From IMG/VR virus record IMGVR_UViG_3300037400_003220, positions 26,893 through 90,892 of that record: a DNA stretch of 64,000 bases; one strand, 5' to 3'. Positions 1-41,607 of the stretch are shown here, piece by piece (the first letter of the stretch is position 1; every line of letters begins with the position of its first letter). The stretch comes from a virus. Lineage: Duplodnaviria > Caudoviricetes. Under the pieces are notes generated by a model. The model saw only the letters and a list, made by a program, of their open reading frames with translations, had not been told where the DNA came from and searched no databases. A program made the translations under genes and the position numbers.

Positions 1-287
1 GTCTCGCCTTCTCCTTCAGCGTCTTCTGCTGGGGTCTCTTCCTCGGCTGGTGTCTCTGGATCCTCCTCGGTTTCAACATCCTCTACTTCAAAACTATCGT
101 CCTCGATAGGTTCTTCCTCTTTTTCGAGTTTTTCGTCATCTACTGGCTCATCTTCATCCTTGATGAAGTCACTAATAGCCTCATTAACGATACTCTTAAG
201 AGTCTTCTCTGTGCTTTCTTTTAATGCTTTAGAGATTTGTTCTGCATTAAGTAAAGCCTTTTCTGCCGTATTATTTTTCTTTGCCAT
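1..287 (-). CDS. Acidic prohead core/scaffold-like protein, N-terminal 95 aa (runs off the window edge; not in the ORF track)
   Basis: Read manually from ATG at 287: MAKKNNTAEKALLNAEQISKALKESTEKTLKSIVNEAISDFIKDEDEPVDDEKLEKEEEPIEDDSFEVEDVETEEDPETPAEEE... It is very acidic, has LKE/VNE motifs, and has a TATTTAT box upstream (330-336). Position downstream of a gp21-like protease suggests a gp22-type scaffold (inference). Confidence 0.6.
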   Translation of the reverse strand, partial: MAKKNNTAEKALLNAEQISKALKESTEKTLKSIVNEAISDFIKDEDEPVDDEKLEKEEEPIEDDSFEVEDVETEEDPETPAEEETPAEDAEGEGE

Positions 288-423
288 AATTAATTAATTT
301 GCTATTTAAAAAGTGCTTATTTTTTATATATAAATATATTTGAATTTTAAAAAGTTGTTTTTTTTGGAAAAAAATTCACAAAAAGTATTATTTTTTTTAT
401 GTTTCTACTATTTTAAATCAAAA

Positions 424-1386
424 TTATTTGATATACATAGCCTTATTACCAAAATCTCCCGCTCTTTCACCACATTCTTGTCGAATTAAATTTGCTAAAA
501 TAACCGCAGCCTTTCTATCAGCAAAACGTGGCTGATAGCCTTCCCATTCGCATTTTTCAATATTAAAAATAAAGTTTTCCGAAGTAAAAGATGGATCTGA
601 TACATTAATACCCCAAACATTGGTAAATATTGTTAAATTATCAATATTGGAGTGATAAATCTTTTTCCAACTTTTTGCACCTAAATCACTAGCCCTGTTA
701 CTTTGCCCATATCTTAACATCTTATCATATGCATTTTGCATAGTACTAATGCTTAATTCGTCAAACTCATTTTCATTCAATTTCATATTACTTGAATTAG
801 CCAAGTCCATAATTGCCTTGTTTGCTTCTTTAGATGTGGCCTTACCTTCAGTGTAACGTTTCATAACATCAACAAGATGCTCCTGTATACTTTCGCGAAT
901 TAATCTAACGAGAGTATTTTCGTCAACATGTTTAGGTAAACCCTTTTCTTTTGTTCCAGCGAAGTCTTTTAAATCTTTTTTTGACATGCTATTGGCTATT
1001 TTCTTAATTTTAGGACTAACATTTTTTGTTTCACCTTTTTTATAAGCGTATGCGGCGCCCATTAATCCTCTCTGTGCTTTAGACACGGCCTTCTCTTTTA
1101 AGGATTCATCCGTTCTTTGTCTAAATCGACCTACTTCAAACCCGTCCTTAAACTCAATTATTATACCAGTTTCTCCGCGGTTTACAATTTTTTTACCAGT
1201 TTCTGTTGTTAAATAATTTGGCTTTCCGCTTTTATCCCAACATGAACGAACGTGCTCAAATGGGCCTTCTGGTAGAATTAATGCACACAATAAACCATGA
1301 TCTTCCGTACATTCGTATCCATTAGAACCGTTTATAAATGCTGCATCACCTGTATATGGCTGCCCCTTAAAAAATACTTGTTCCAT
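424..1386 (-). CDS. Putative internal head protein with a DUF3008-like domain
   Basis: Segment KAVSKAQRGLMGAAYAYKKGE...SMSKKDLKDFAGTKEKGLPKHV resembles DUF3008 and is followed by the head-protein motif DENTLVRLIRESIQE. TATTTAT box at 1432-1438. Confidence 0.55.
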   Translation of the reverse strand: MEQVFFKGQPYTGDAAFINGSNGYECTEDHGLLCALILPEGPFEHVRSCWDKSGKPNYLTTETGKKIVNRGETGIIIEFKDGFEVGRFRQRTDESLKEKAVSKAQRGLMGAAYAYKKGETKNVSPKIKKIANSMSKKDLKDFAGTKEKGLPKHVDENTLVRLIRESIQEHLVDVMKRYTEGKATSKEANKAIMDLANSSNMKLNENEFDELSISTMQNAYDKMLRYGQSNRASDLGAKSWKKIYHSNIDNLTIFTNVWGINVSDPSFTSENFIFNIEKCEWEGYQPRFADRKAAVILANLIRQECGERAGDFGNKAMYIK

Positions 1387-1486
1387 TACAATATTATAGT
1401 TTATATTCTTATTTTATTTGTGTATGTATATATAAATAGTTTTTTAAAAAGAAAAAAGCCACATAAATGTGACTTTTATTCAATTG

Positions 1487-3121
1487 TTAATATAAGTAAT
1501 CATTTAGATATATTTGTTTGTTTTTTATTGGCGGATATAGAACCCGTTTTTGCCCAGTCTTTAACGGTGTTTCTATCTCATCGGAAACGTAAAGTTCCTT
1601 TAAACTATTCTCTAATTCTTTACTCCACCCTTCTACACTATTGCACATAAATTTAATTTTTGGGTCTACAAGTGCTTTTTGAAATTCATTTTTGTAAATA
1701 TCATGACTCCATATTCCTAACCGTATCTCGGAATCAAACACAGGTTTATCGTGTTCGTAGTAGTTAAAATAAACATCTTCTAACACATAACTTTCATTTA
1801 TTAAATTGAATTTATCAATGATGACCCGTAATTTGTTAATGTCATACCAATATGGATAATGCGTCGTATAATTAACGTGCGGTAACCCATCTTTATTAAA
1901 TAATTGTCTTGTTTTCCACTTATCATGTCTCCAAAAACTTGTAGGGGCTAATTTATTACCTACAAACGATGAACTATGATAATGTGTTTGTAGTATATCA
2001 AATAAGGTAAACGGTTTAATTGCGTACTCGTCATCACATATTGCTACAAAACCAGAATATTTACCCTCATATTTGTCCATCACAGTCACAAATTTATTGA
2101 GAATATCAAGATGTGCATTATATTGCCCATCAACTTTTTTTCTTGATTTACATTTAATAAACTCTACCCACGAGAATTTTTTCTCAAATGTTTCATCATA
2201 CTCACCAATGACAACAAAATGATATTTGAATGTGCAATTCTTTCTCCATAGTGATAACGTCATCTCTAATTCAGTACCTTGCGCGCCACTTTGTTTATAT
2301 GGTAACACAACTAATATTTCGTCTTTCAACGCTTCCATAAGTTCGGTTTTCATACATTTTAATTCTGGGTTGAGTTTAAAAAAGAAATCATCTGTTCTTG
2401 AGATTCCAATAAAAAAGCCTCTTTTATATTTTTTGTCGACGTATTCTTCCCATGATTTAGTTATGTAATGCCTAACATATATTTTATCAAACACTTCACT
2501 TTCTCTGTCATTTGTGAAATCTGTTCTGCACCATTTACATTGGTCTGAAGGTTGGTGGTTTGTAAAATAATTATTAGGTTTAAATGTGTTCAAATTATAA
2601 CACGTTTTTGTATGGAAAATAGGGTTATTATTAACAACACCATTACTTTTATAAGGATATGCCTCAACAACACCGCTATTACGGTAGTTTGGGCGATTGA
2701 TGTGACCGCACGCACCATAATTCTCCCATGACATTACAAATGCATCATATCCAGAAAATAATTCAATTGTTTCATTTAAATTATCACACGAAATAAACTC
2801 ATCCGCATCTATAATAAAACACCAATCATATAAATGTTCTTTTTGTATTGAAAGCATTGCGTTTCTGAAATATAATGTTTGAACATTTACTCTGTTTTGT
2901 TGTTTTAACCTTATCGCTTCACGTTGCTGTATTTCATTCAAAACAGTGTTAATGCTACTCAGAGAAACGCAGTCATACTTATCACATATTTTTTTATGTG
3001 ATTCGCTATCAATATCTTCAAATATGAAAATACGATCAATACCTAGATTAAGGTGATATTGAATCCACTCATCTAGGTATTGATGCTCATTTTTTATTAC
3101 CGTGCAAATACAAATTTTCAT
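1487..3121 (-). CDS. Two-domain glycosyltransferase (N-terminal GT2/GT92-like GT-A fold; C-terminal second GT-like domain)
   Basis: KICICTVIKNEHQYLDEWIQYHLNLGIDRIFIFED and WCFIIDADEFI (DxD) are typical of Glyco_tranf_2_4/GT92. The second half has its own acidic motif, FVAICDDEY. Confidence 0.75.
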   Translation of the reverse strand: MKICICTVIKNEHQYLDEWIQYHLNLGIDRIFIFEDIDSESHKKICDKYDCVSLSSINTVLNEIQQREAIRLKQQNRVNVQTLYFRNAMLSIQKEHLYDWCFIIDADEFISCDNLNETIELFSGYDAFVMSWENYGACGHINRPNYRNSGVVEAYPYKSNGVVNNNPIFHTKTCYNLNTFKPNNYFTNHQPSDQCKWCRTDFTNDRESEVFDKIYVRHYITKSWEEYVDKKYKRGFFIGISRTDDFFFKLNPELKCMKTELMEALKDEILVVLPYKQSGAQGTELEMTLSLWRKNCTFKYHFVVIGEYDETFEKKFSWVEFIKCKSRKKVDGQYNAHLDILNKFVTVMDKYEGKYSGFVAICDDEYAIKPFTLFDILQTHYHSSSFVGNKLAPTSFWRHDKWKTRQLFNKDGLPHVNYTTHYPYWYDINKLRVIIDKFNLINESYVLEDVYFNYYEHDKPVFDSEIRLGIWSHDIYKNEFQKALVDPKIKFMCNSVEGWSKELENSLKELYVSDEIETPLKTGQKRVLYPPIKNKQIYLNDYLY

Positions 3122-3124
3122 ACA

Positions 3125-3984
3125 TTATTCAGACTCAGAAAGACATCCTGCATTATAATAATACGCCCATTGTTCTTCAGCCACATATGCGCCCAAACTA
3201 CCTTGAGGTACATAAATATTTAAAACAGCGTCTCCAGGTCCACTTTGATCTCCTGGTACTGCACCAAATGGGTTGTTGCCTACTTCTATTGGCGTTGATG
3301 AATGAATTACTGCGGTTAATTCATTGCCACCATATTGTGAAAATACTTTAAACGCGTCGTATCCAATATATGTAACACTTTCAGGAATTTCTACATAAGT
3401 AAGGCTATGACAGTCTAGGAATGCACAATCTCCTATATTGGTTATAGTATCACTTAATTGTACTGTTGTTAATTGTGTTTCATTAATGAATGTTTGATAT
3501 TCTATTGAATTGGCAGTATTACCAAAAACAATAGAAACCAATGGGCTGTCATGTTCATATGATTCATTATTTATTATTGAGTCTTCAGATTCACTTGTTG
3601 TTCCATCAGCATATGTGAATATTGTTTTTGTGAACCGCTACCTGAACCACTTCCACTTCCTGAGCCGCTACCTGAACCACTTCCACTTCCTGAGCCGCTA
3701 CCTGAACCACTTCCACTTCCTGAGCCGCTACCTGAGCCGCCGCCTGCTACATTGATTACTAAATCAACAGAACTCAAACCATCTACGCCGTAGTCAGATG
3801 CATTTATAGTAAAGTTACCATTTTTATCAATTGTGATACTAACAGGTTCATCTTTAATGGTTTTTCCACCCACCATTTTATCAATATCCTCTTGTCTTAA
3901 TGGGAAAATTGATACATTACCAATCGGGGCCTCTTGAATTCCGCCAAAATAGTAATTTTCGTCATTATAATCTATTCTATTCAT
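3125..3984 (-). CDS. Surface/decoration-like protein with (GS)18 linker and BspA-type LRR, split by a -1 frameshift near 3625-3630
   Basis: ORF 3984-3574 runs out of frame just after the GS tract. The -1 frame continues KTIFTYADGTTSESED...LVSIVFG... into ORF 3541-3125, which has BspA-like repeats (LSDTITNIGDCAFLDCHSLTYVEIPESVTYIGYDAF). The fused product would be about 286 aa. Confidence 0.65.
3643..3732. repeat. Three perfect tandem copies of a 30-bp unit encoding (GS)5
   Basis: TGAACCACTTCCACTTCCTGAGCCGCTACC at 3643-3672, 3673-3702 and 3703-3732, with partial copies on both sides; 18 GS dipeptides in total. Confidence 0.97.
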
Positions 3985-4143
3985 AATTATTTTGTTTATT
4001 TAATCATTCAACCAAGCATCAAACTTAGAATATTTATCATTTGACTCTTTTATCACTAGTTTGTTATTGTTTTTTTTAGTTAATATTTTTCAATGTATAT
4101 ATAAATAGTTTTTAATAATAAAAAAATCGCCGTTAAGCGACTT

Positions 4144-5490
4144 TTATTTACTATGATTTCTTATTATATTCTCCAACTCGTTTATTTCATACAGATTATT
4201 ATTGTATATTCCATTGTATATCGGTTTCAAGTAATCTATAGTATCTTTGTTGCTGGCAACATATAATATCTTAACACCATTCTCTTCGCATTCAACATTT
4301 TTTGATATATCATATCTAACTTGCTTTATAAATTTATCATCCCCACCAAAATATTTTAGTGGAGCAAAATGTTGCTCACCCTGGCATTCTATTGCTAATT
4401 TATATCTTGGTATGTAGAAATCAAAACTTTTCATCCCTAGCCAATCAAACCTCTTCTGTCTTATAAATAACAATCCTAATTTTTTTAATAACATGTTTAC
4501 ATCTCTTTCTAAATGGGATTCATTACAATATGGACAAGCATCTCCTCTTGTTATCACATGATTTGGCGTTACGTTAAACTCACCATGCTTTGGGCATATT
4601 ATAGTGACTTTAGTGTTGGAATTTACATATTTCACTTTAGAAAAATCATAATTCAAACCCCTGTAAATATCTTTTAGTTCTTCAATAAAAGTTTCATTAC
4701 TTTTTCTTATTGTATTACCTCTCCTTTCGTCATAACATTTTTGACACCCATGCCCTTGCAGGTGATATAACGGCGTCATAAAAAATGAACCGTGTTTTTG
4801 ACATATAATTTCAACTTTTTTCTTGTTTCCTTGATAATTAACTTTTGAGTAATCATATTTATCACCATGTATTGCGCGTGCTTCAGTAATAAATTGTTCG
4901 GTAGTTTTCTTTTTGCTTTTAAAACACATTGGGCATCTATCCCCACATAAATGACGACTAGGTGTTTGCAAAAATTCACCATGTTCAGGGCAAACTATAC
5001 ATACTTTTGTTTTGTTATTAATATACTTAACTTTCGAATAATCATATATGCTACCATGCACTTCTCTTGCTCTCTCAATAAAACTTTCAGTTGTTAATTT
5101 TTTAACACCGCCACAGGCTTGGCATCCATGACCATTTAAAAAATCATTAGCCTTTATTTTGAAATCTCCGTGTATCGGACATGTTATTACAACAGGCTTT
5201 GTTATTCCGTTATATATAGTGTTATTATACGAATATCTATCACCCCATTTCTCTTTACACTTCTTTATAAAAGTCTCTGTTGTGTATTTCAACCTTCTTT
5301 TTTCTTTTGCACAAATAGGGCATCCTCCACCATTAATGTGTGTGTACTGATCTTGCCAAAATTCGCCATGTTCTGGGCATATTATGCACAATTTATCATG
5401 GGCCTTTTTAAATACAACCTTAGAATAATCGTATTTATCTCCATGAATAAATTTTGCTTTTTTAATAAAAATTTCTCGCTTGTCTATCAT
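4144..5490 (-). mobile_element. Free-standing putative homing endonuclease: five DUF723-like Zn-binding repeats plus a C-terminal PD-(D/E)XK (Vsr/EDxHD-like) nuclease
   Basis: Five repeats of FIxxAxxxHGxxYDYSKVxY...I.CPxHGxF...GCxxC, then SFDFYIPRYKLAIECQGEQHF. Has its own TATTTAT box (5510-5516). Confidence 0.75.
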
Positions 5491-5570
5491 ATTTATTTTT
5501 CCCTTATTAATAAATATAATAAAAGCGAGAAAAAGTCAAGACTAATTATGATTTTTTTTGCGGGGATATC

Positions 5571-6296
5571 TTACGAATTTAATAACCACTTATCAAATTT
5601 TGAATATTTATCGTGGTTTTCCAAGACAGTTTCTTTGCCCGTACATTCTTTTGATTCTATAAACGGCTCTAATTCAGAGTCTTCTAACCTTATAATAGCA
5701 CCAGGTGTACTATTTTGTGTAACAACGTCCCAACATACCAGTTCCAGATCATCCCCAACAATTAATTTACCTAATTGTTGTGTAACACTTCCAAGTGCTC
5801 TACTTGATACTCCGATTCTTAAACCAGAAATAATCCATTGTGCAACGGTATCAGCAAGGTTAGAACAAATTCCATATCTTCTGAAACCCTCTGTTATAGG
5901 TAATTCCATTTTGCCAACTAATGTTCTACCCACCCAGTGCAATTCTATAATATTCATACATATTCTTTCGCCATCAATTGCACTTTCTTCTGGGTGATTT
6001 AGTTGGCCATATGCTCGTCTTTCTTTAATGGCCTGTTGATATTTTTCAACCTCTCTTTTTAATACTGTTTCTGGATATATTCTTCCATTTGCATTCTCAA
6101 TCCCATATTTCTGGAATACTGCAGATACGACGAATGGGCGAGGTAGATCGTGCGCCACCCCACTATTAAAATCGTCGATAGATTCTTTAATTAACTTGTT
6201 CTCTTTTGAGTTAATATCTATAAAACCATCACTTTCAATTAATAGGCCAGTTCCTGTTTGTCCTTTTTTTATTTCAACTAATTGCTCTCTTTTCAT
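5571..6296 (-). CDS. gp21: T4 gp21-like prohead core protease (start moved to ATG 6296)
   Basis: ENANGRIYP, LNHP (His), GVSSRALGS (Ser) and WDVV..STPGA motifs. The TATTTAT box at 6331-6337 lies inside the longer ORF call, which favours MKREQ at 6296 as the start. Confidence 0.88.
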   Translation of the reverse strand: MKREQLVEIKKGQTGTGLLIESDGFIDINSKENKLIKESIDDFNSGVAHDLPRPFVVSAVFQKYGIENANGRIYPETVLKREVEKYQQAIKERRAYGQLNHPEESAIDGERICMNIIELHWVGRTLVGKMELPITEGFRRYGICSNLADTVAQWIISGLRIGVSSRALGSVTQQLGKLIVGDDLELVCWDVVTQNSTPGAIIRLEDSELEPFIESKECTGKETVLENHDKYSKFDKWLLNS

Positions 6297-6362
6297 ATTA
6301 TACTTCCGTAAATATTGTTCTACTTTATATATAAATAGTCTTTTGTTCACAAAAACAACAAA

Positions 6363-7994
6363 TTATTTCCTAATATTTCTCCTCACTACACATCTCTTCC
6401 TATTTTTAAATCTTAGATATGTATTATTAAGTGTACTGCTGTTATAAATTTGTGAGTATGGGGTTTCGTTAAGGCTTATTTTTGTTTTTTGTTCTTTATT
6501 TGTTTCTATTTTTACTTTTGGATCTTGTTTTATCTCTGTTTTTATTATTTTACTTTTATTATTCTTATCGTGAGATAGAGCAACATTGTATAAATCTCTA
6601 TAGTAAAAATCTTCTGTAACCCCAATATCTTTCACACTGATATAAGTTACATTATTATTTGTTTCTTTATTTATTAAAACATGTGTCGTTTGTGACAATC
6701 CGTCAAGATTATAGTCTATGTCATTTTTTACATATCTACTATATATGCTTTGATTGAATTTTAATTGTTCTCTATTTAAAAAAGTCCTTCTTGGATGTGT
6801 TATATGGCATAGAGTATTTTCGAGCCTGCGCATTTTTAATTTCAACCCTAAAATATTATCCTCGCATCCCCAACCAATACATAAATTTGAGAAGCCATTT
6901 ATCTTTGTAAAATCAGAAGACTTCATAAAATTAAACGCACCAAATCCTTCTAACCTCTTTTCTGTTCTGTCAATTACATATTTTTTACCTTCCGTAAAAT
7001 GCACTTGTGCTATTCTATCAAACATTAACAATGGAGAGTTAGTCTTGTTGTATTCATCAATCAAATTTATTTTTTTAGTATTGAAAATATCATTATCTAT
7101 TAGGCCAATCCATTTGGTATCAGAATAGTTAAACGCTATATTAAACAATTGTCCCCTTTTAAAATCAGTTTCATCATCTTGAGTAATAACAATGAATTTT
7201 ATACCTTCAAAGTATTCATTGAAGGTTTCATTGAAATTATTTATTACATAATCTATGTTTTTACCGCCTCTATTTGGTATAATAAAAGTAACTTCACTTA
7301 TGTTGCTATGTTGCTCATTTAATGCTTTGTTTAATATGTTATTTATTCTATTTTTTACTTCTTTAATGCCATATTTTCTTGAATACCAACAATGTATACA
7401 AAGTTTATTTTTGTCATAAAAAATTGTTGTGGCATACATTGTATCACCGTTTAAAACCTGACAATAATCGTCACTAATATCATTTAATTCCATAAAATTC
7501 ATTTTTAACTCATATCTTAAAAAACATAACATTTTGTAATATGGTTCAAATGCGTCACATGACACTGTTTTATTGCTTTCATATAGATCACAAGGAACGG
7601 TATATTTATTATATTCGGATTCAGATATTTCCCTCATTTTTTTGCACTTAAATACTGTGAAAAATAGATTTGGAACATCATTTCTATGATGGCGCATTAA
7701 AGATACACCACCATCTGGCATTCCACAAATATCCATGTCATTTTCTTCCATATCATTTATTATGTCAAAAACAGCATTTTCATCATAAATGAAGCAATCT
7801 TCATCCACAAATACTATATAATCAAATTTATCTTGTAACCTATCATGCAAAAAACATTTCTCCAATAATTTTTTACCATATAAATAATTTCCGCCAAATA
7901 TATCAATTGATGGTAATTTTGTTAATTTTGTTTTTTCTAAAACCTCGCGATTAATATAGTTTCTTATAGCGATTATACTTGATTTATCTATCAT
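6363..7994 (-). CDS. Two-domain glycosyltransferase; C-terminal domain GT7 (beta-1,4-galactosyltransferase-like)
   Basis: N-domain has DYIVFVDEDC. C-domain has DFKRGQLFNIAF, DND and DFTKINGFSNLCIGWGCEDN, matching the GT7 F-N-R..L-N and INGF.N..WGWGGEDD motifs. Confidence 0.78.
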   Translation of the reverse strand: MIDKSSIIAIRNYINREVLEKTKLTKLPSIDIFGGNYLYGKKLLEKCFLHDRLQDKFDYIVFVDEDCFIYDENAVFDIINDMEENDMDICGMPDGGVSLMRHHRNDVPNLFFTVFKCKKMREISESEYNKYTVPCDLYESNKTVSCDAFEPYYKMLCFLRYELKMNFMELNDISDDYCQVLNGDTMYATTIFYDKNKLCIHCWYSRKYGIKEVKNRINNILNKALNEQHSNISEVTFIIPNRGGKNIDYVINNFNETFNEYFEGIKFIVITQDDETDFKRGQLFNIAFNYSDTKWIGLIDNDIFNTKKINLIDEYNKTNSPLLMFDRIAQVHFTEGKKYVIDRTEKRLEGFGAFNFMKSSDFTKINGFSNLCIGWGCEDNILGLKLKMRRLENTLCHITHPRRTFLNREQLKFNQSIYSRYVKNDIDYNLDGLSQTTHVLINKETNNNVTYISVKDIGVTEDFYYRDLYNVALSHDKNNKSKIIKTEIKQDPKVKIETNKEQKTKISLNETPYSQIYNSSTLNNTYLRFKNRKRCVVRRNIRK

Positions 7995-8917
7995 TTCCGA
8001 ACTCTCTTTTTTACCACTCTTCTGTTAAATTTATTACTTTTTATCTCAGATATTCCCAAATATATTGACGATAAAACTTGCAAACCATCTTTTGTATTAT
8101 TTGAACTTGAGGTGTGTTTTATTCGTCCAGACGCATCACATCCGCTTATTTTGCTGCTGACATAATCAGTAATTTTTATTAGATTTATTTTCATTGCATC
8201 CCACTTTCTTTTAAACTCGGCGTCTGATATCATATATTGTATACCATAGCCATTTTTAATATCGTTTACCCCACGCCTTTTTCGCGCCAGATTTTTCTTA
8301 AATAAACAGAACTCACGATCAATCCATTTTAAATGAAACGATTTTATTACGCCTTCATTCAACGATTTCAATTCTTTTCCGTCATTAAGTACAACATTTG
8401 CCATATGTGCGCCAGGAGTATAAGTTATTGATTTAAAAGTGTCTAATTTAAATAGTGTCATTTTACAGCCGTTAAGTCCCCAAAACACTCCGCCATCACA
8501 TGACTCGTGCACGAACTTATTTTTATCTGGAAAATGTTCGCAAATAGTCTCAAACATTTCTTGATTCAAGTAGTTATAACCATCTTTTGCTTTTTCCTCC
8601 AGATACTCTTTTAGCCTACCAGGATAATATATTACTTCATCAAAATCAGAAACAAACATCCATGCATCTTTTTCGTCCTTAAATTCTTTCCATACACGAT
8701 TTTTAATATCTATTATTATTTGGTTGCTTTTAGAACCTCCAGTGTCAAATGTTCTTACTTCAATAAATGGATATTTCTTTAGTAACTCAACGGTATTATC
8801 GTTAGATTGATTATCATATACTATCAATTTGTCAAACCCCATATGTTCAAGATATTTCATAACATATGGAACCATAAGCGACTCATTGTATGTAAAAGTA
8901 ACTCCGTATAATTTCAT
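7991..8917 (-). CDS. GT2-like glycosyltransferase (Glyco_tranf_2_4 type)
   Basis: TFTYNESLMVPYVMKYLEHMGFDKLIVYDNQSNDNTVELL and WMFVSDFDEVIY (DxD). Overlaps the next gene by ATGA. Confidence 0.78.
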   Translation of the reverse strand: MKLYGVTFTYNESLMVPYVMKYLEHMGFDKLIVYDNQSNDNTVELLKKYPFIEVRTFDTGGSKSNQIIIDIKNRVWKEFKDEKDAWMFVSDFDEVIYYPGRLKEYLEEKAKDGYNYLNQEMFETICEHFPDKNKFVHESCDGGVFWGLNGCKMTLFKLDTFKSITYTPGAHMANVVLNDGKELKSLNEGVIKSFHLKWIDREFCLFKKNLARKRRGVNDIKNGYGIQYMISDAEFKRKWDAMKINLIKITDYVSSKISGCDASGRIKHTSSSNNTKDGLQVLSSIYLGISEIKSNKFNRRVVKKRVRK

Positions 8918-8918
8918 A

Positions 8919-9800
8919 TTAATGTTTTTTTACCACCCTTCTTTTAACTGCCTTAAATTTCATTAATTTATAATTGTTCGTATCAATGCCGTATATTGGA
9001 CCATACATTAATTCCATTGTTGCTTTATTTATTTTTCTCTCTTCTTCCTTGTAGTCAATATTATCATATGCAGTTATGTATTGTTTCCAGAAACCTTCAT
9101 TAAATTTTCTAAATGCGTGGCACCCCATTGGTAATTTATTTCCATTTCTTTGATATTGGATGTGTGGAATTTCCTGGAAACTAAACTCTCTACACAGTTC
9201 AATCGGTGCTAGTTTAAAATTAGACTTCAACTGTTGTGTAAAGGCACAATCTTCAAGATTTTTAAACCTAGAAAAATCAGTTTTTTTACACACCTCAATG
9301 AAAGGTTTTATTCTTCTTAAACAGAATCCTCCGTTTCCATTTTCACCATATTTCTCATGCCAAGCAAAGCCAATTAAATGCGGAGCACCAATGTAGTCGT
9401 AACCCTTTTGCGTGAAGTAGTCAAGCCTATCCTCAAATACCCACGCGTCAAGTTGATAAATTACCATGAATTCATACTCAGAAAAGGCATCGTAGAATTG
9501 CCATGCCTCACACATATCTGAATAACTTCTTTGGGATTTGAAAAAAGCATTGTTACAACGAAGTACTGAAAACTCGTAATCAGCAATACTATTGTATTTA
9601 TTAACATCCAATGTCATTGGGCAAACTAGTACCAATTCATATTTATCACCAAGAATCTTAACTACTTGTTTTAAAGATTCTGTTTCAAAAAAATTTGGTT
9701 CTTGTTTGTATACTGGAATAGCAATTACACATTTTTTATTGCCTATATTGTTTCCGTGATGTTCTATTTTTGTGTCTATCCATTCAATTCTTGGCCACAT
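8919..9800 (-). CDS. DUF5672-family protein (putative glycosyltransferase)
   Basis: VIAIPVYK, IYQLDAWVF, YDYIGAP, NGGFCLRRI, ED..F, FSFQE and PMGCHA motifs, characteristic of the DUF5672 proteins found in Bacteroidota glycan loci. Confidence 0.72.
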   Translation of the reverse strand: MWPRIEWIDTKIEHHGNNIGNKKCVIAIPVYKQEPNFFETESLKQVVKILGDKYELVLVCPMTLDVNKYNSIADYEFSVLRCNNAFFKSQRSYSDMCEAWQFYDAFSEYEFMVIYQLDAWVFEDRLDYFTQKGYDYIGAPHLIGFAWHEKYGENGNGGFCLRRIKPFIEVCKKTDFSRFKNLEDCAFTQQLKSNFKLAPIELCREFSFQEIPHIQYQRNGNKLPMGCHAFRKFNEGFWKQYITAYDNIDYKEEERKINKATMELMYGPIYGIDTNNYKLMKFKAVKRRVVKKH

Positions 9801-9804
9801 AATC

Positions 9805-10965
9805 TTACTCCCCGCCTAATTCACTTTCGGTAAAATAACCATCAACTATTATTTCTTTTTCCTTTCTCTTATCTGCTAAATCCTTTTCAAACGATTGATA
9901 GTCTGAATCATATTTGATTTTACTCATGATTTTATCCATACCATCTCTACCCAATTTAGTTCCAACCAATACCTCATCCATTAATGTGTTAAATTTCTCA
10001 TTATCTAATGACATTAACTTTTGAAGCAGTTTTTCGGTATAGGTGTCATCAAATTCTTCGCCACATATACTATTCCAAAACACTCGGCCTAAAATCATAT
10101 AGTATGGTTCATCCTGTAATGTATCACAGCGATTAACTATATAATCTGCTCGTTTTTCTGGTAACGTGTTAAAAGTTAAAGCCTCAATACATCCGCGAAT
10201 GGCTTCTGTTAATAAGAATGGAAATATTATACCTTCAGCAAGAATCTTGATATAATTTGATGAATCATCAACGGAAGTTTCAACATAAGCATCCTGCTGA
10301 TTGTTATCATCTGTTATCTCGTCGTGTTTGATTAATAACAAGTAATTATTAATTTTGATGATCTTTGTATATAAGTAAGGTAACTCCTCGTCTAACTCAA
10401 AAATCTCTTTAACACATTTTGTTAATAAATTGTCTGTTAATTCCAATGCCGCGCCAATTGTAATTGCGTTTGTATAACGTCTTCTAACTTCATCACTATC
10501 TTCATCATTTATTTCATCAATACTATCATACTCAACTGGTACTTTCGTATCTGGTTTTACATGAAAGTCTTTTGATTGAGGAATAGAAGTTACAAGATTA
10601 CATTCAAGTTCCAATTCTTTTCCATTTAATTCAAATAATGACAACACAATATCAGCACAAAGTTTTTCCAACTCTGCCTTAATCTTATTCTCTTTTTTTT
10701 GACAAATAAGGATTAACTTATTAAGTTTGTTCTCAATCTTATCGACTGGAAAATTTGTTATATCGTCTGAAAAAGAACTTACCGCGTTTTCATAAGCCGC
10801 CTCTAACATGCGCATGATTGCTTCATCTATAAAAGACTTGTCACTTGATAACGGAAATTGCTTATTATGAACAGCATTTATCAGCCAAGAAGGTAATTCT
10901 CGGTTGTTTTCTAATGATTCTTTAATAAGTCTATATTGTTCTTTATTTATGAATATGTTTTTCAT
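9805..10965 (-). CDS. Hypothetical virion-associated protein with N-terminal leader motif
   Basis: 386-aa ORF starting MKNIFINKEQYRLIKESLE; helical and acidic; cotranscribed with the GT trio. Confidence 0.55.
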   Translation of the reverse strand: MKNIFINKEQYRLIKESLENNRELPSWLINAVHNKQFPLSSDKSFIDEAIMRMLEAAYENAVSSFSDDITNFPVDKIENKLNKLILICQKKENKIKAELEKLCADIVLSLFELNGKELELECNLVTSIPQSKDFHVKPDTKVPVEYDSIDEINDEDSDEVRRRYTNAITIGAALELTDNLLTKCVKEIFELDEELPYLYTKIIKINNYLLLIKHDEITDDNNQQDAYVETSVDDSSNYIKILAEGIIFPFLLTEAIRGCIEALTFNTLPEKRADYIVNRCDTLQDEPYYMILGRVFWNSICGEEFDDTYTEKLLQKLMSLDNEKFNTLMDEVLVGTKLGRDGMDKIMSKIKYDSDYQSFEKDLADKRKEKEIIVDGYFTESELGGE

Positions 10966-11264
10966 TTCAAATCTTTCTTTCTAACAGAATAAGAACTCTC
11001 TTTTAGATATTTTAACTTTGCTTCTTTTAGTTGCTTCTTGGTAACCGCTTCGCTTATACCAGCATTTTGCCTTAATGAATCAGCCGAAAATCCAACACTC
11101 ACGCCTTTTTGTGTGTCAACACCTTGACTTTGTGCCGAGTCAATAGTGTTTTGTGCGGCACTTTTTAATTCTTTTGTCTGTGCAAGTTGCTCATCGCCAC
11201 TTAATTGTATTTCACTTAGCATACACTCTGCTAATTGTTCTTCAGTAAATAAAACTCTTTTCAT
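10962..11264 (-). CDS. Small hypothetical head-associated protein (start moved to ATG 11264)
   Basis: MKRVLFTEEQLAECMLSE...ISEAVTKKQLKEAKLKYLKES; TATTTAT boxes at 11288-11300. Confidence 0.55.
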   Translation of the reverse strand: MKRVLFTEEQLAECMLSEIQLSGDEQLAQTKELKSAAQNTIDSAQSQGVDTQKGVSVGFSADSLRQNAGISEAVTKKQLKEAKLKYLKESSYSVRKKDLK

Positions 11265-11339
11265 AATTAAAACATAATTTTCTTTATATAAATATAAATA
11301 AATAAACAAAAAAGCCTCACTAATGTGAGACTTTTTCTA

Positions 11340-11918
11340 TTATTTAAGACACTTACTAATTGATTCGGCAATCTTTTTTAACTTTTTCTTTGTTACTACA
11401 TTCTCCTGCATTGGCATTGTATTTTGTGGTGCTTCTTCTGCTGGTTGTTCAACCTGTTGCTCATCACTTTCTGACTCGTCATCTGCAGGCTCCTCGTTTG
11501 ATGCCGTATTAATTGCCTTAATCACTTCCTTTTTTGTTGCTTCGCTAGCATTTTTTAATGCTGCTTTGACAATCATTTTTGCTGCATACTTGTTAAGACC
11601 TTCATCTTCATTTTCGTTATTGTAGTTGTTTAACGTCGTCGATAATTTGCCAGTTAACTGTTGTATGTATTTTTTTGGGTCTGTATCTTCGTCGGCTTCA
11701 ACACCAGCATCAAAATTTGTATCAAATTGGCTTTGGCCGTTGTCTTGAGACATATCTTCCATTGGTGGCATTCCTCCCTGGTCTTGCATCATTGGGTCTC
11801 CGCCCATCGCCTGAGGGTCCATCGGTGGCATACCGTCCATTGGCATGTCTTGAGGTTGTTGTCCCATACTAGGATCGGTTGGAGGCATCTGTCCTTGGTC
11901 TCCGCCAACCTTTAGCAT
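11340..11918 (-). CDS. Pro/Met/Gln/Asp-rich protein, probably the C-terminal extension of the upstream ORF via -1 frameshift
   Basis: Open frame begins before the upstream stop codon (KKSLSEGRT-MLKVGG). The sequence before ATG 11918 is not the A/T-rich leader seen before the other genes. Confidence 0.55.
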   Translation of the reverse strand: MLKVGGDQGQMPPTDPSMGQQPQDMPMDGMPPMDPQAMGGDPMMQDQGGMPPMEDMSQDNGQSQFDTNFDAGVEADEDTDPKKYIQQLTGKLSTTLNNYNNENEDEGLNKYAAKMIVKAALKNASEATKKEVIKAINTASNEEPADDESESDEQQVEQPAEEAPQNTMPMQENVVTKKKLKKIAESISKCLK

Positions 11919-11932
11919 GGTTCTACCCTCAC

Positions 11933-13426
11933 TTAGGCTTTTTTTGACTTTTTGCCCTCTTGAAGTCTACTTTTAATACCATCAAGTACTAAATCAACTA
12001 CTTTCTCGAAAGGATCGCTGCTACCAATTTTTTGACCGTAAGGTTGTTCACCCTTAGCAGAATCGTCGTTCCAATCTTTCTCAGCAGTACCTGCTAATAC
12101 TTCTTTGTTTGCTGGTGTTGACATTGGTTGTTTGCGATAACGTGGATGTTTGCCCCATGCGTCCAATTTTGTAATTTCTTCAGCCACAATTCTATCAATA
12201 GCCTCTTTTAATGTTTCTGGCTTTTTGCATTCGCATTTTTCTTTACCGCATTTTGGACAAACTTCTGCTTTTTCTTCCTTACTTTCGCATTTTCCTTCAC
12301 AAAGTTTATTAACAACAGCATTTGTGATTCTATCTACAGCCTCATTAACCTTTTCGTCGTTCCAACCCTGAACATCTAAACCACCATGAGGGCCATCCAT
12401 AACTTTATCTGGGCCTTCGATTTTAGATTCGATATTCTTTTCCTCACCGTGCATAGCCTTCTCAGTTTCCTCAAACTCTCTAATTAAAGTGTCCAACTCG
12501 TCGTTTAAGAAATCACCATCGCCTAACGGTCCATTATCTGGCTCTACATCTACAATTGGTTCTTCTTCAGTGTTAGCAAAATCCTCTAAATCTTCGTCGG
12601 ATAATTCATCATCACCAACTAATGTATCGGCATTAGCGTCGATATCGTCTGCATGGAAATCATCTGGGTTAAACTCAATCCCTTCATTCATTTTAACAGC
12701 CTTTGCCCCAGTTGGATGTTGGTCAGCAACCCCTTCTCCTTCTAAGTCATCATGAGCATCCTTTGGTTCCTCTGCTGTATCAACTTTCTTTGTTTTCATG
12801 GCATCAGATTCGAGGTCTTTTTCAACGCCGTCAACTTTAGTGTTGTCATCGGCGCTTTCAACTGTAGCAGTTGCCTTAAGATCTTTGTCAAGTTCAGCCT
12901 TTGCTGGTTCCTCGAATGGGTCGCCTTGCTTAGCAGGATCAGTCGCTTTGCCTTTGCTTTCTGGGTCGCCAGTGTTATCTTTTCCGATGGTTTGTGAATT
13001 CTCGAATATCTGGTGCATTCTATTCAACTCTTTACGGGCCTCTTCGGTCAAAACAGCCAAATTTTTCTTTCCGCGATTAAAATCAACAACAGAAACATCT
13101 TCGTGTTTACCATAGGCCTCATTCAAACTAATCATCTTAAGTTCGAGTTGTTTAGTTGCCTCATTGTAACTCTTGTAACCGTTTTCGTTACGATAGTTAA
13201 ATCCGCCAATATACTCGTAAGATTCCGCAAGTTTTTCCTTGCCTTGTTCGGTAGTCATGATATAGTACATGTTACCTTCTTTAAGAATACCGTAAACTTT
13301 ATTATCAGCGCCAAGTGTATGATATTCTACTTTGTTACTTCTTTTTGACTCATTTACAGGAACTCTGTACCCCATCAAGTACTGCATTCTATCTAATTGA
13401 GAGTCGAATTTACTGTTATTTGCCAT
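11933..13426 (-). CDS. Acidic head core/scaffold-like protein
   Basis: 497 aa with many L/V-x-E sites (VNES, LAES, LNEA, MNEG, VNEA, LKEA) and a long acidic low-complexity middle. TATTTAT box at 13471-13477. Confidence 0.55.
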   Translation of the reverse strand: MANNSKFDSQLDRMQYLMGYRVPVNESKRSNKVEYHTLGADNKVYGILKEGNMYYIMTTEQGKEKLAESYEYIGGFNYRNENGYKSYNEATKQLELKMISLNEAYGKHEDVSVVDFNRGKKNLAVLTEEARKELNRMHQIFENSQTIGKDNTGDPESKGKATDPAKQGDPFEEPAKAELDKDLKATATVESADDNTKVDGVEKDLESDAMKTKKVDTAEEPKDAHDDLEGEGVADQHPTGAKAVKMNEGIEFNPDDFHADDIDANADTLVGDDELSDEDLEDFANTEEEPIVDVEPDNGPLGDGDFLNDELDTLIREFEETEKAMHGEEKNIESKIEGPDKVMDGPHGGLDVQGWNDEKVNEAVDRITNAVVNKLCEGKCESKEEKAEVCPKCGKEKCECKKPETLKEAIDRIVAEEITKLDAWGKHPRYRKQPMSTPANKEVLAGTAEKDWNDDSAKGEQPYGQKIGSSDPFEKVVDLVLDGIKSRLQEGKKSKKA

Positions 13427-13498
13427 AATTATTATAATAATTTATTTTAGTTATTTGCATTATTTTTACTATAAATACTTTCTAAAATCTAAAAAATA

Positions 13499-16054
13499 CT
13501 ACTTTATTGTATTAATTTTATCAAAAGTTATTCTTTTTAAGTCTACTAACTTACCAATATACCCCAAACGCCTAAGTGTTTTGAATATAATATTACCATT
13601 TCCTAGTTCAGATCCATTCTTTAGTGAATCCTTCCTCATTCCTTTTATTTTATCGAATAAACACTTAACTTTTTTGGATAAAATGTCTAATTTCGCCTCA
13701 TCTTTTTCTCCATTACACTCATCTTCTAAAGAGTCAATTTTATCGATAATATTTTTAGTTTTATGTGTTATACATTCTTTATCTAATTTTACTGCGGTGA
13801 GATTATCTCTCTCTGGCTCTCTTAACCATTTGTCTTTCTCTAATGAATATACTCCAGAGGCTGTATGTTCTTCACTCTCATCTTGTACATATAATTCAAC
13901 TGGATAACCGTATATTTTTAAATCTTCGTGTTGGTTATTCCAAATTGTCTTCTTTGAATCGAAATAATCTTTTACAAATTCAACCCTGTCATCAACTTCT
14001 TTAAAATCAACTACAATATGTAGATCGATATCTGAAAATTTACTCCAGTTATAATTTGCTAGACTACCAGTCATAATAATATCTTTTGGCTTGACCCAAT
14101 TTACTTCCATTGAATCAAAGAATGTGTCGGCAATATCTAGCAAACGCAATCTAACTCTTGAGTTTAATTTTCCGTTAATCCAGAATTTTGGATTTAATTG
14201 TTTTTGGACATCGAATGATTGCAAAACATCGCCCAACTCATTATCATCGACAAACTCATCAATGCTTTCCCTAGTTAAAAATGGTATCGTATTTTTATCC
14301 TCGTATTCCGATACGACGTCATCAAAAGTTTCGTCAATTACATGAATATAGTCGCCATCGTCTCCGAGTAATAATTTTTTCTTATTGTAAAAATCAACCA
14401 TTTCGTTTAGTTTCTTTTTCTTTATTTCATTATATTCTGAGAATGGTTTCCTCTGTTTATACCCATCATAAAGCCACTCCCTGAAATCATCTATAGAAAC
14501 CTCTGTTACCTTACCAAGTCCTTTCCATCCTTTATTGTAGTTTGATAGATAAGCCTTTTTTGCTTCTTCTTCTGTTTTAAAGCCAAACATAATTTTAGTT
14601 TCATCGAATTTACCATTAATTACCTGGTCAATAGCAAATATTGTCTTGCAATCTAAATCCTTACCTAAAAATACATCAACGGCATCGCCATCAACCGCCT
14701 TTGTATGTGTGAAATAACCATAGTCGTTATGCATTAGACATTTCCACGCTTTTCCGTTTTTATCTTTACCTTTTCTATAACTACCCTTTGGGTTTTCTAT
14801 TGCGATTTCGAAACCATATATATTAACTCTACCCATCTTATAATTACCTGCCTCTTTCTGTCCTTCTGTTGGGGTTGTATTGGTTTCTTTTCTTGCTTTT
14901 TCTAATTCTTTTTTAATATAAGACAATTGAGATTCTGTTAAATATACCTTTTTAGTGGTCATCATTGAATATTCTTCTTTTATTATTTTATCTAACCATT
15001 TTTTTACGCTTTCTAAATGATTTTTACAATCATCCATATCATAATGCCCGCCATTCTTTTTGAACTCGTCGTCTATAACGGCACAACAAATGTCATCATC
15101 CTCCATGCTTTGAGTATGATATATTTCATAGTCGTCTCCGAAAACTTTTTTTAGAATATGCACATAATGCTCGGCCATTTCAAGCGGTTCCTTGTCCTCA
15201 CCATAATATTTAGGTAATTTACCATCTTTAATCATGTCACGAACTGCTTTTCTTACTTTTTCTTCAAGATTTTTATCCACCGATTCGTTAATCACACTCT
15301 CATCTACATATCTTAATGCATTGTATTGTGCCATTGGCATTTCTTTCCCATTGCTCATAGTTAATTTCTTTCCTAATAATTTATCCCTTGTAAGTCTAAA
15401 ATCAGCCGTCGCCTTACTCTTATCCTGTGGAGACATCATGTGAAGAATAGCCTGCTTTGTATTATCCTCAATTTCGTCATCGCCAGGCATAAAACTATTG
15501 TATTCTATTAGAGGTCTACTTCCGTTAATAATAAAAATTCGTCTATCAAATAAATGACTATCTCGACATACTTGATATACTATTTCATTTGTTAATTCCA
15601 TAGGATATCTGTTCATATACCAAAAACCAAACACCACACAATTTTGATTAATATATGGTACATCAATTATAAAATATCTACCCTTAATAACAAACTCCTC
15701 ATCCGCAAAATCCAAATATTTACCAGTTTTGTAATAGTCTTGATTTATGTACTCATCCTCTCTTTTGTATCCTGTAATATCACTTGGCTTATATCCTCTG
15801 TTTGCTAAATATTCTTGAACCTCTGGCCTTAACTGATCATGGATACTTCCTGGTTCGCCGTAAAACAATTTATTTTCATTTCTAAATCTTAAATAAACAA
15901 AAGGAATCGCGTTATCTTGCATATAGTCTTGTTGCCCACAGAAAAATATTTCATCTGGGGTATTGAAGTTGTTTTTCGAATTCTCTACTGACAACTTAAA
16001 CAAATCAATCATGTTCTTTCTCTTTTGCTTATCGTTTAATTCTAACTTCTTCAT
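13499..16054 (-). CDS. Multidomain protein: unknown domains + InPase (polyvalent-protein pyrophosphatase-like) + Pol-beta-superfamily nucleotidyltransferase
   Basis: PTEGQKEAGNYKMG...IENPKGSYR...YGY...DGDAVDVF...FDETKIMFGF...A..AYLSNY...W.G matches InPase. IMTGSLANYNWSKFSDIDLHI...YPVELYVQD gives the GS, DxD and third acidic residue of Pol-beta NTases. Likely start MKKLEL at 16054; TATTTAT box at 16078-16084. Confidence 0.75.
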   Translation of the reverse strand: MKKLELNDKQKRKNMIDLFKLSVENSKNNFNTPDEIFFCGQQDYMQDNAIPFVYLRFRNENKLFYGEPGSIHDQLRPEVQEYLANRGYKPSDITGYKREDEYINQDYYKTGKYLDFADEEFVIKGRYFIIDVPYINQNCVVFGFWYMNRYPMELTNEIVYQVCRDSHLFDRRIFIINGSRPLIEYNSFMPGDDEIEDNTKQAILHMMSPQDKSKATADFRLTRDKLLGKKLTMSNGKEMPMAQYNALRYVDESVINESVDKNLEEKVRKAVRDMIKDGKLPKYYGEDKEPLEMAEHYVHILKKVFGDDYEIYHTQSMEDDDICCAVIDDEFKKNGGHYDMDDCKNHLESVKKWLDKIIKEEYSMMTTKKVYLTESQLSYIKKELEKARKETNTTPTEGQKEAGNYKMGRVNIYGFEIAIENPKGSYRKGKDKNGKAWKCLMHNDYGYFTHTKAVDGDAVDVFLGKDLDCKTIFAIDQVINGKFDETKIMFGFKTEEEAKKAYLSNYNKGWKGLGKVTEVSIDDFREWLYDGYKQRKPFSEYNEIKKKKLNEMVDFYNKKKLLLGDDGDYIHVIDETFDDVVSEYEDKNTIPFLTRESIDEFVDDNELGDVLQSFDVQKQLNPKFWINGKLNSRVRLRLLDIADTFFDSMEVNWVKPKDIIMTGSLANYNWSKFSDIDLHIVVDFKEVDDRVEFVKDYFDSKKTIWNNQHEDLKIYGYPVELYVQDESEEHTASGVYSLEKDKWLREPERDNLTAVKLDKECITHKTKNIIDKIDSLEDECNGEKDEAKLDILSKKVKCLFDKIKGMRKDSLKNGSELGNGNIIFKTLRRLGYIGKLVDLKRITFDKINTIK

Positions 16055-16150
16055 TGCAAAACACAATATTCTACATAATAAATATAAATCAAAAACAAAA
16101 AAAGGGAAGATAAACTTCCCAATTTTACTGAATTTTAAGATAATAACTTA

Positions 16151-16534: not shown

Positions 16535-16554
16535 ATGTTACTTCTTTTTTTGTT

Positions 16555-23078: not shown

Positions 23079-23109
23079 TACTATTTATGTATTAAAAACA
23101 AGCAAAACA

Positions 23110-24111: not shown

Positions 24112-24191
24112 ATTTTGCTTTATATCCTATCAAAAGCAATTGGTGTCAAAACCAAACCGAAAGATTTAAATTCTTTCAAAAAGATGGTGAG

Positions 24192-24587: not shown

Positions 24588-24661
24588 ATTTTTTTGTATA
24601 TTTAACTTGATTTATTTAGTATTAAATATATATTTTAAGAATGAAAAGGAAATAGAAAAAA

Positions 24662-41518: not shown

Positions 41519-41520
41519 GT

Positions 41521-41607
41521 ATGGAATTTCAAGAAATATGGATATTACCAATTACCGTTTTGGCTATATCAATGGTTGTTGCATATATATTTGGTGAAAA
41601 AAATTAG
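41521..41607 (+). CDS. 28-aa single-TM microprotein (not in the ORF track)
   Basis: MEFQEIWILPITVLAISMVVAYIFGEKN*, starting 2 nt after the upstream stop codon. Confidence 0.45.
   Translation: MEFQEIWILPITVLAISMVVAYIFGEKN

Follow-up and report, generated by a model that had tools for sequence, protein, structure and literature searches.

A Stealth-like enzyme beside a Gly-Ser-tract protein suggests an accessory protein-glycosylation system in an uncultivated T4-like jumbo phage

Introduction

To our knowledge, experimental evidence of virion glycosylation in tailed phages is confined to mycobacteriophages, where the modification alters antibody recognition. According to work that cites the original study (Freeman et al. 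2023, cited in PMC12619734), glycosyltransferase (GT) genes of these phages adjoin structural genes and the glycans are carried on the C-terminal tails of capsid and tail-tube proteins. Here we analyse a stretch of viral DNA of 64,000 nucleotides (nt), hereafter the window, which makes up the final 64 kb of an IMG/VR virus record of 90.9 kb (IMGVR_UViG_3300037400_003220, here G000) that is 25% complete according to CheckV, implying a jumbo phage of ∼350 kb. It encodes four putative glycan-building enzymes in two transcription units: in unit 1 three enzymes are encoded together with two head-module proteins, while in unit 2 (3984–1487) a protein with a (GS)18 tract and leucine-rich repeats (LRR) precedes a two-domain enzyme of 544 amino acids (aa). 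We propose, with a probability of about one half, that these genes provide an uncultivated T4-like jumbo phage with an accessory protein-glycosylation system, which modifies the Gly-Ser tract of the neighbouring fibre-like protein.

As in the mycobacteriophages, phage GT genes are here adjacent to virion structural genes, and the glycosylated C-terminal tails described for them have a parallel in the (GS)n tails encoded near Stealth-like genes in other viral loci (L070, L071, L226, L220 and L236). In contrast to those phages, the host phylum is another one, the enzymes comprise a Stealth-like fold, a GT7-like domain and a DUF5672 protein, and the candidate acceptor is a Gly-Ser dipeptide repeat forming an internal linker of an LRR protein rather than a capsid tail. 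The capsid protein and other head proteins of the window phage have no acceptor tails of the mycobacteriophage type.

The second domain of the 544-aa enzyme resembles the Stealth proteins GNPTAB and CpsY in fold (Z 16–18 over 220–237 residues) and in its DD and H-x-P columns. However, at ∼250 aa the phage domain is much smaller, is fused to a GT92-like domain, belongs to a mostly viral family and leaves the Pfam CR1–CR4 models silent, and it is proposed to act on serines of a protein instead of on a glycan. Serine phosphoglycosylation is known from Dictyostelium proteinase I, which carries GlcNAc-1-P-Ser at acceptor sites of Ser-Gly character. The CryoSeek ‘TLP-2’ glycofibril from pond water has been described, without an associated gene, as a linear repeat of dipeptides, each bearing a glycan on a phosphoserine (bioRxiv 10.1101/2025.09.30.679562). 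The present locus is similar to both in combining a Ser-containing dipeptide repeat with chemistry of the sugar-1-phosphate-transferase type, but by analogy only, the phosphodiester being putative here.

Chloroviruses and giant viruses build capsid glycans with multi-domain enzymes of the GT-A fold. Soluble multi-domain viral GT-A enzymes and glycans made on virion proteins in the cytoplasm would be features in common with the proposed system; in contrast, the present virus is a tailed phage with another type of acceptor, and no direct homology to characterised chlorovirus enzymes was detected. The GT7-like domain of unit 1 shares with the animal GT7 enzymes B4GalT1 and B4GalT7 the C-domain fold, the Glyco_transf_7C signature, a DxD-like D-N-D motif and GWGxED, but the phage enzyme is a soluble protein in which this domain is joined to a GT2-like domain and followed by a basic tail. 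Nothing relevant on phage Stealth enzymes emerged from a literature search, and the literature searched suggests that a Gly-Ser-directed virion coating has not yet been described.

The Gly-Ser-tract protein and the 544-aa enzyme

The candidate acceptor and the enzyme are encoded on the minus strand with a gap of 3 nt between the LRR open reading frame (ORF) and the 544-aa gene:

3125–3984, minus strand: candidate acceptor protein, with an 82-aa N-domain, the (GS)18 tract and a BspA-type LRR_5 domain (family match and sequence)
1487–3121, minus strand: 544-aa enzyme gene (PF13704 Glyco_tranf_2_4, E 2.4e-13, 50.8 bits)
2366–3121, minus strand: N-domain of the enzyme (aa 1–252), a GT92/GT2_4-like GT-A domain with D105-x-D107 (Pfam and structure match)
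1583–2347, minus strand: C-domain of the enzyme (aa 259–513), a divergent fold of the Stealth sugar-1-phosphate transferase type (structure and profile)

Structural comparisons of the 544-aa enzyme, and of the 543-aa enzyme of unit 1, used AlphaFold models based on homologue alignments. The N-domain superposes on the GT92 galactan synthase GalS1 (8d3t) with a Z of 16.0 and a root-mean-square deviation (rmsd) of 3.3 over 200 aligned residues; after GalS1 it is most like the peptide S-glycosyltransferases ThuS and SunS, and its family profile matches GmaR, which glycosylates flagellin in Listeria (E 7.8e-4). Of 16 close homologues of the enzyme, 7 contain PF01697, unlike the window copy.

For the C-domain the nearest structures are GNPTAB (7s6n; Z 18.0, rmsd 3.0, 237 residues aligned) and CpsY of M. 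tuberculosis (8j2n; Z 16.0, rmsd 3.5, 220 residues aligned). A profile of 49 members of the Stealth-like family, run against the whole PDB, retrieved only GNPTAB (E 5.7e-6, 1.4e-5, 5.7e-5 and 5e-4) and CpsY (E 3.8e-3), and the family-invariant DD (363–364) and H-x-P (421–423) fall where the ...LNDD... and ...aHMP... of GNPTAB align. Neighbours of the domain in the ESM Atlas include PF11380 clusters; PF11380 itself gave no match in the genome at E ≤ 10, and a single-sequence search of the 544-aa protein against PDB sequences returned nothing. As modelled, the C-domain is thus a Stealth-fold, phosphotransferase-like domain and not a GT-A domain, with sugar-1-phosphate transfer as its putative activity. 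The preliminary description had counted about six GT domains in the four enzymes; six catalytic domains are present and five of them are GT-A, the sixth being this Stealth-type C-terminal half.

Homologues of the 544-aa enzyme number in the hundreds in metagenomes (50–79% identical) and occur at 25 loci in IMG/VR, whereas among 185,579 species genomes there are only four matches, all on metagenome-assembled-genome (MAG) contigs, and no homologue was found in GenBank phage records. The Stealth-like family comprises 244 cluster representatives at E ≤ 1e-3 and is mostly viral, and structural neighbours include GT92-domain and Stealth proteins of giant viruses. At one locus (L054) a gene resembling NAD-dependent sugar epimerases/dehydratases (9112–9966) lies directly upstream of a 544-aa homologue, and in some metagenome proteins (P0124 and P0126) the enzyme is fused to RmlD/epimerase domains; by gene context, these neighbours and fusions hint at the donor sugar of the 544-aa homologues.

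The candidate acceptor is encoded by two ORFs (3574–3984 and 3125–3541), which represent one interrupted gene, since the intact homologues P0150–P0152 hold both the N-domain and the LRR in one ORF. The sequence at the shift site (3620–3635, TCA-CAA-AAA-C) follows directly after the tract. The (GS)18 tract is encoded by a 30-bp tandem repeat (3631–3735) and is kept in either product, with or without a −1 shift; no other real gene in the available 90 kb contains a Ser-rich low-complexity tract. The (GS)18 tract forms a linker in the window protein and a loop near the C-terminus in P0150–P0152, and this varying position fits a movable exposed tag rather than a fixed linker. The (GS)18/LRR protein reported previously is therefore present with both its tract and its repeats, but in the form of two ORFs that need a −1 shift to be joined.

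Gly-Ser tracts beside Stealth-like genes in other phages

A [GS] run of at least 7 residues is encoded by the gene immediately upstream of the 544-aa homologue in 12 of the 23 distinct loci with a readable upstream gene, and this gene repeatedly specifies an LRR_5 protein in which a GSGSGS... tract separates the N-domain from the repeats. Such runs occur in 21/615 ORFs of these loci versus 1/606 in protease-anchored control phage loci (Fisher p 9e-6), with a bias towards the upstream position (binomial p 5e-28). Duplicate contigs were taken out by eye for the count of 12/23 and left in for the ORF counts, and because many of the loci are related, the p values overstate independence and are indicative only.

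LRR proteins are not the only carriers. A second search, with the Stealth-like domain alone as the query, added smaller phages (L226, L220, L218 and L236) in which between one and three proteins of the structural module have a (GS)n-GA end and are encoded immediately ahead of the Stealth-like gene. Elsewhere, a major head protein verified with PHROGs ends ...GSGSGSGEGA in L070, and in L071/L225 a 517-aa protein encoded after an S49 prohead protease, as well as the next protein, end in (SG)n just before the Stealth-like gene. An assignment of the L071 517-aa protein as the capsid protein was not confirmed by PHROGs, Pfam or PDB sequence, its place after the S49 protease being the sole evidence. 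Two or three proteins each end in (GS)n-[EA]-G-A at L226 3–3641, L220 787–1962 and L236 2800–5133, from consecutive genes in L226 and L220; from their sequences, these shared ends look like a C-terminal modification tag.

Loci that encode the N-domain only have no Gly-Ser neighbour, and the link is therefore to the Stealth-like domain. Since upstream genes of the homologues carry Gly-Ser runs and structural proteins of smaller phages carry (GS)n tails, the acceptor is likely to be the (GS)18 tract of the adjacent LRR protein rather than the capsid protein. In addition, families found in unit 1 or in the cassette of a relative described below (DUF5672, 308-aa-like, 1117-aa and 918-aa GTs, acetyltransferase) adjoin 544-aa homologues in 11 other loci and occur in 0/36 control loci, a recurrence that favours one system, short of proof.

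The unit-1 enzymes

Three further enzymes are encoded in unit 1:

8919–9800, minus strand: DUF5672 protein, 293 aa (PF18922, E 6.5e-42, 143.4 bits against a cut-off of 24.4)
7991–8917, minus strand: GT2_4/GT92-type GT-A enzyme, 308 aa (PF13704, E 6.6e-13, 49.4 bits; PF01697 GT92, E 3.8e-6, 27.1 bits against a cut-off of 23)
6363–7994, minus strand: two-domain enzyme, 543 aa (PF02709 Glyco_transf_7C, E 1e-7, 32.0 bits against a cut-off of 23)

The 543-aa enzyme consists of a GT2-like N-domain (aa 1–228), a confidently modelled GT7-like C-domain (aa 230–475) and a disordered, basic tail (aa 478–543). The solved structures nearest to the C-domain are B4GalT1 and B4GalT7 (Z 21.7–22.1, rmsd 2.5–2.8, 209–215 residues, 16–22% identity; Foldseek E 4.3e-12), heparosan synthase being the next family (Z 15.8). 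The domain has D-N-D at 300–302 and GWGCEDN at 374–380, and in an alignment of 13 sequences D300-N301-D302, G374, W375, G376, E378, D379 and H397/H400 are invariant or nearly so; presumably these correspond to the catalytic residues of B4GalT. PF13733 (7N) stays under its cut-off on this protein (14.8 bits against 27). The GT7 domain named in the preliminary description is thus borne out by both the hidden Markov model, with PF02709 over its cut-off, and the structural check, with B4GalT1/T7 as the nearest fold; the C-domain is a GT7-like GT-A domain, for which galactose transfer is only putative on the basis of the model. The bacterial GT2 enzyme K4 chondroitin polymerase also matches the C-domain and, as the Glyco_transf_7C signature is found in bacterial GT2 enzymes too, it is no evidence of an animal-like glycan. 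The GT2-like label of the N-domain comes from the ESM Atlas, where it matches clusters named ‘glycosyl transferase family 2’ (TM 0.76/0.68), and from a weak Pfam GT2 match at aa 58–90, the list of solved structures being filled by the C-domain.

A single-sequence search for loci with the 543-aa enzyme gave none and an alignment-based search only three. Elsewhere, in the metagenome proteins P0002, P0003 and P0019–P0028, the GT7-like domain is fused to a PF04230 pyruvyl transferase, to DUF5672, to an extra GT2 or to a methyltransferase, and judging from these fusions it behaves as a module of glycan-tailoring enzymes. The DUF5672 family, which is also fused to GT7-like domains in the metagenome homologue P0011, is assumed from these fusion partners to be a glycosyltransferase family. 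The DUF5672 protein had no relative among PDB sequences in a single-sequence search, and the GenBank phage records hold only one homologue of it and none of the 543-aa enzyme.

The three unit-1 enzymes belong to unrelated families and end in a common tail (6363–6470, 7991–8098 and 8919–9026) of the form ...IY..., K-F-[KN]-x-x-[KR]-R-x-V-V-[KR]-[KR], with a net charge of +7 to +9 across the last 30 residues; it reads ...KFKAVKRRVVKKH in the DUF5672 protein and ...KFNRRVVKKRVRK in the 308-aa protein. Some metagenome homologues (P0002, P0007 and P0008) share the tail, the 544-aa enzyme does not have it, and among the loci fetched the tail motif is confined to this genome. In the relative L006, basic tails with another motif are found on the two large GTs. 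A recent duplication was considered as the source of the shared tails and rejected: the 3′ ends align poorly as DNA and the likeness is at the protein level. No transmembrane segment was found in any of the enzymes or in either LRR/GS ORF.

The cassette in relatives of the phage

The head region was compared across 37 viral loci fetched through the protease. The backbone of the clade to which the window phage belongs encodes, in order, the 497-aa and 192-aa proteins, the small protein, the 386-aa protein, gap 1, the protease, gap 2, the 466-aa protein and gp23. Neither gap is occupied in L010/L011, whose capsid protein is 62% identical, and in L014, L042, L016–L018 and L021 gap 1 holds terminase, portal and other backbone genes and no glycosyltransferase. 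A glycan cassette occupies gap 1 only in the window phage and in its closest relative, L006/L009 (capsid protein 70% identical), where it encodes a 1117-aa protein (GT92-like, GT7-like and GT2), a hexapeptide acetyltransferase and a 918-aa protein (GT2 and TOD1/MUCI70). Because the site is common to two lineages, its content differs between them and other relatives are without it, the cassette is accessory; the gaps also hold unrelated inserts (an HNH endonuclease in the window, a SprT-like gene in the closest relative), which marks both as insertion hot spots. Four other relatives, including a complete genome of 345 kb, lack PF13704.

Compared with four relatives (one complete genome), the window record alone combines a Stealth-like domain with a tract of (GS)5 or longer, and a fifth relative likewise has no Stealth-like domain. 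LRR_5 proteins occur only in the two records with GT cassettes, the LRR protein of the relative lying beside fibre-like genes. Directly upstream of this 540-aa LRR_5 protein (L075 7199–8267; G001 41198–42266), two small proteins of fibre-like look contain a repeated ...DKQD-x-LTAG-x-NIEITSGGTIS.... The synteny of GTs with head genes that had been expected across related phages does not extend this far: the site is shared with the closest relative only, and 25 other viral contigs encode a homologue of the 544-aa enzyme with no head gene within 10 kb.

Proposed mechanism and alternative explanations

In the proposed system, unit 2 would be a substrate–enzyme pair, with the gene for the fibre-like protein followed by that for a bifunctional enzyme. 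The GT92/GmaR-like and Stealth-like domains of this enzyme would modify serines of the Gly-Ser tract with sugar and sugar-1-phosphate, acting in the cytoplasm while the virion is being assembled or earlier. The three soluble enzymes of unit 1, co-transcribed with two prohead proteins, would probably lengthen this glycan or modify additional virion proteins. A more far-reaching version, which we put forward tentatively as possible but somewhat doubtful, is that small Stealth enzymes of tailed phages phosphoglycosylate (Gly-Ser)n serines in their own virion proteins and that GT-A enzymes (GT7-like, DUF5672 and GT2-like) extend these into a dense glycan brush or ‘glycofibril’.

Several observations weigh against the proposal. 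The Pfam Stealth_CR1–CR4 models miss the C-domain of the 544-aa enzyme (16 members, E ≤ 5). In a reverse sample of 39 randomly chosen viral loci with true (GS)6+ tracts, drawn mostly from other environments and giant viruses and often with short flanks, none had a flanking Stealth-like gene, indicating that Gly-Ser tracts are also common as plain linkers, and about half of the Stealth-like loci have no Gly-Ser protein within 6–10 kb. The acceptor gene is frameshifted in this assembly, its ORFs joining only through a −1 shift at CAAAAAC near 3625, which may reflect an indel introduced in assembly, a genuine mutation or ribosomal slippage at a low level. We infer the virion placement of the LRR protein from context only, namely the fibre-like neighbours in the relative and the label ‘putative tail protein’ on one LRR_5 homologue in a cyanophage. 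Finally, the 118 kb of the closest relative contain a GT cassette but neither a Stealth-like domain nor a Gly-Ser tract, and the three unit-1 enzymes may consequently have another acceptor.

The last observation would also fit a glycan on the capsid shell, carried by the major capsid or a decoration protein and leaving the Gly-Ser/LRR protein incidental, as the preliminary description had it. Translational coupling of unit 1 to the 115-aa and 386-aa head-module proteins, the presence of the relative's cassette at the same site without a Gly-Ser tract and the Gly-Ser tails on capsid proteins of other phages are all in its favour; however, Gly-Ser and Ser-rich tracts are absent from the 621-aa gp23 homologue and the other head proteins, most relatives with the same head genes are without the cassette, and both gaps are hot spots that accept unrelated inserts. 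We consider this explanation unlikely. The broader claim that a virion glycan is built is consistent with the soluble enzymes, the promoter boxes of the head-gene type and the different multi-enzyme cassette of the relative at the same site, while capsid or decoration proteins are less well supported as acceptor than the Gly-Ser tract of the LRR protein.

The basic tails of the unit-1 enzymes keep alive two ideas with targets other than a virion protein. That these enzymes glycosylate hydroxymethylated phage DNA, to which all three tails (+7 to +9) would bind, appears highly improbable: we know of no DNA substrate for GT7-like or Stealth-like domains, and no ThyA-type hydroxymethylase (PF00303), TET/JBP dioxygenase (PF12851) or C5-methyltransferase (PF00145) was found in G000 (90 kb) or G001 (118 kb), records that represent 25% and 34% of their genomes (the PF12851 search being without a positive control). 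GT-A enzymes that hypermodify phage DNA do exist, but phage GTs of this kind usually cluster with base-modification genes (bioRxiv 10.1101/2023.12.21.572611), whereas the neighbours here are head genes. The enzymes might also act on the host, either by remodelling its surface polysaccharide, which is how the multi-GT islands of cyanophages are usually read (PMC12801897), or as effectors loaded into the head and injected to glycosylate host proteins, for which the basic tails and an extremely acidic 466-aa scaffold-like protein encoded nearby could be adduced. The locus, however, has no membrane anchor, flippase or polymerase gene or lipid-carrier enzyme, multi-step cassettes with acetyl- and pyruvyl-transferase partners fit a complex glycan better than a single effector modification, and the pattern of Gly-Ser neighbours would be left unexplained; we find a host target improbable.

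The known bacterial Stealth enzymes are capsule polymerases, for example that of meningococci, and the Stealth-like plus GT92-like enzyme could likewise polymerise a free sugar-phosphate polymer, with Gly-Ser as the ordinary linkers of a co-mobilised fibre gene. Gly-Ser tracts are indeed common without such enzymes, and the enzyme and LRR genes could travel as one cassette. We nevertheless give this possibility little weight, as the enzyme is soluble, no export machinery is encoded, and Gly-Ser tails beside Stealth-like genes in different phage lineages are found on unrelated carriers (capsid, small structural and LRR proteins).

If serine phosphoglycosylation is confirmed, it would be the first outside protists and would define a new class of virion coat, and it could point to the genes behind the phosphoserine glycofibrils with dipeptide repeats that electron cryo-microscopy has revealed in pond water. 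If the Gly-Ser tracts are acceptor tags, a widespread, unannotated phage enzyme family that is almost absent from bacterial genomes would gain a function, the ‘GS linkers’ in capsid, tail and fibre proteins of phages would have to be reinterpreted, phages of the gut and rumen would possess a means of shielding or retargeting their particles, and a compact tag-plus-enzyme pair would become available for site-directed glycosylation. Two adjacent genes make the hypothesis directly testable.

Transcription signals and expression

All genes from 1 to 17568 are on the minus strand, in transcription units bounded by terminator-like hairpins:

11287–11337, minus strand: start of unit 1, a terminator-like hairpin (11337–11308) followed by two overlapping TATTTATA boxes (11300–11287)
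4100–4145, minus strand: start of unit 2, a terminator-like hairpin (4145–4122) and a TATTTATA box (4107–4100)
1454–1477, minus strand: end of unit 2, a terminator-like hairpin, the DUF3008 gene starting from the next TATTTATA box (1431–1438)

In the order of transcription, the hairpin and double TATTTATA box are followed by the genes for the small protein, the 386-aa protein, the DUF5672 protein, the 308-aa and 543-aa enzymes and the gp21-like protease. The HNH endonuclease gene comes next, then a terminator and TATTTATA box, the (GS)18 ORF, the LRR_5 ORF and the 544-aa enzyme gene; after a further terminator and TATTTATA box these give way to the DUF3008 protein, the very acidic 466-aa scaffold-like protein and gp23. 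The four enzyme genes thus flank the gp21-like protease at the very positions given in the preliminary description, which was also exact in its overlaps and gaps and right in placing a promoter-like box at the head of both enzyme operons.

The TATTTATA box is enriched, with 25 copies in the window against 14.5 ± 3.9 expected, a number reached by no shuffle, and 14 of the 25 are located 14–45 nt upstream of a start codon. It precedes the portal gene, the scaffold-like/capsid operon, the 497-aa prohead gene and both enzyme operons, as well as a transposase gene and genes of unassigned role by PHROGs annotation. The transposase gene (52919–54238; phrog_506, E 1.1e-33) has its box 20 nt upstream. 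Late expression of the enzyme operons is plausible; this timing stays an inference, because the PHROGs annotation of the genes behind other TATTTATA boxes gave no timing and one of these genes encodes a transposase.

Head module and mobile elements

The remaining genes around the enzymes belong to the head module or interrupt it:

10962–11264, minus strand: small head-module protein (115-aa gene; weak match to phrog_7970 ‘virion structural protein’, E 2.6e-4)
9805–10965, minus strand: 386-aa protein, conserved across the clade and always upstream of the protease
5571–6350, minus strand: gp21-like prohead protease (Peptidase_S77, E 7.8e-18)
4144–5490, minus strand: HNH homing endonuclease, 448 aa, a mobile insert (phrog_559, E 2.5e-93)

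The 115-aa and 386-aa genes overlap by 4 nt, gaps of 4 nt and 1 nt separate the 386-aa gene from the DUF5672 gene and the latter from the 308-aa gene, and the 308-aa and 543-aa genes again overlap by 4 nt. The true start of the small protein is probably the ATG at 11264 (MKRVLFTEEQL...), since the listed TTG at 11309 falls within the terminator; that of the protease is probably the ATG at 6296, upstream of which the protease has a TATTTATA box of its own (6330–6337). The position of the 386-aa gene is kept in L006/L009–L011, L014, L016–L018, L021 and L042. Its product has a ...LIKES motif near the N-terminus, like a cleavage site of the T4-type protease, and no family match in Pfam or PHROGs; a role in the prohead core or as an internal protein is probable. 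Just beyond the window edge is the gp23 capsid gene (G000 23886–25751).

The HNH endonuclease gene between the protease and the GS gene had not been mentioned before. The head module has been invaded by mobile elements, namely two HNH homing endonuclease genes, at 4144–5490 in the window and, after gp23, at G000 22118–23707, the latter with a GNAT-like segment, and an intein with a LAGLIDADG domain in the portal gene (G000 9560–12712). At 13499–16066, an 855-aa protein with both an InPase domain (E 2.4e-49) and a nucleotidyltransferase domain is encoded; it resembles the polyvalent proteins of phages and plasmids.

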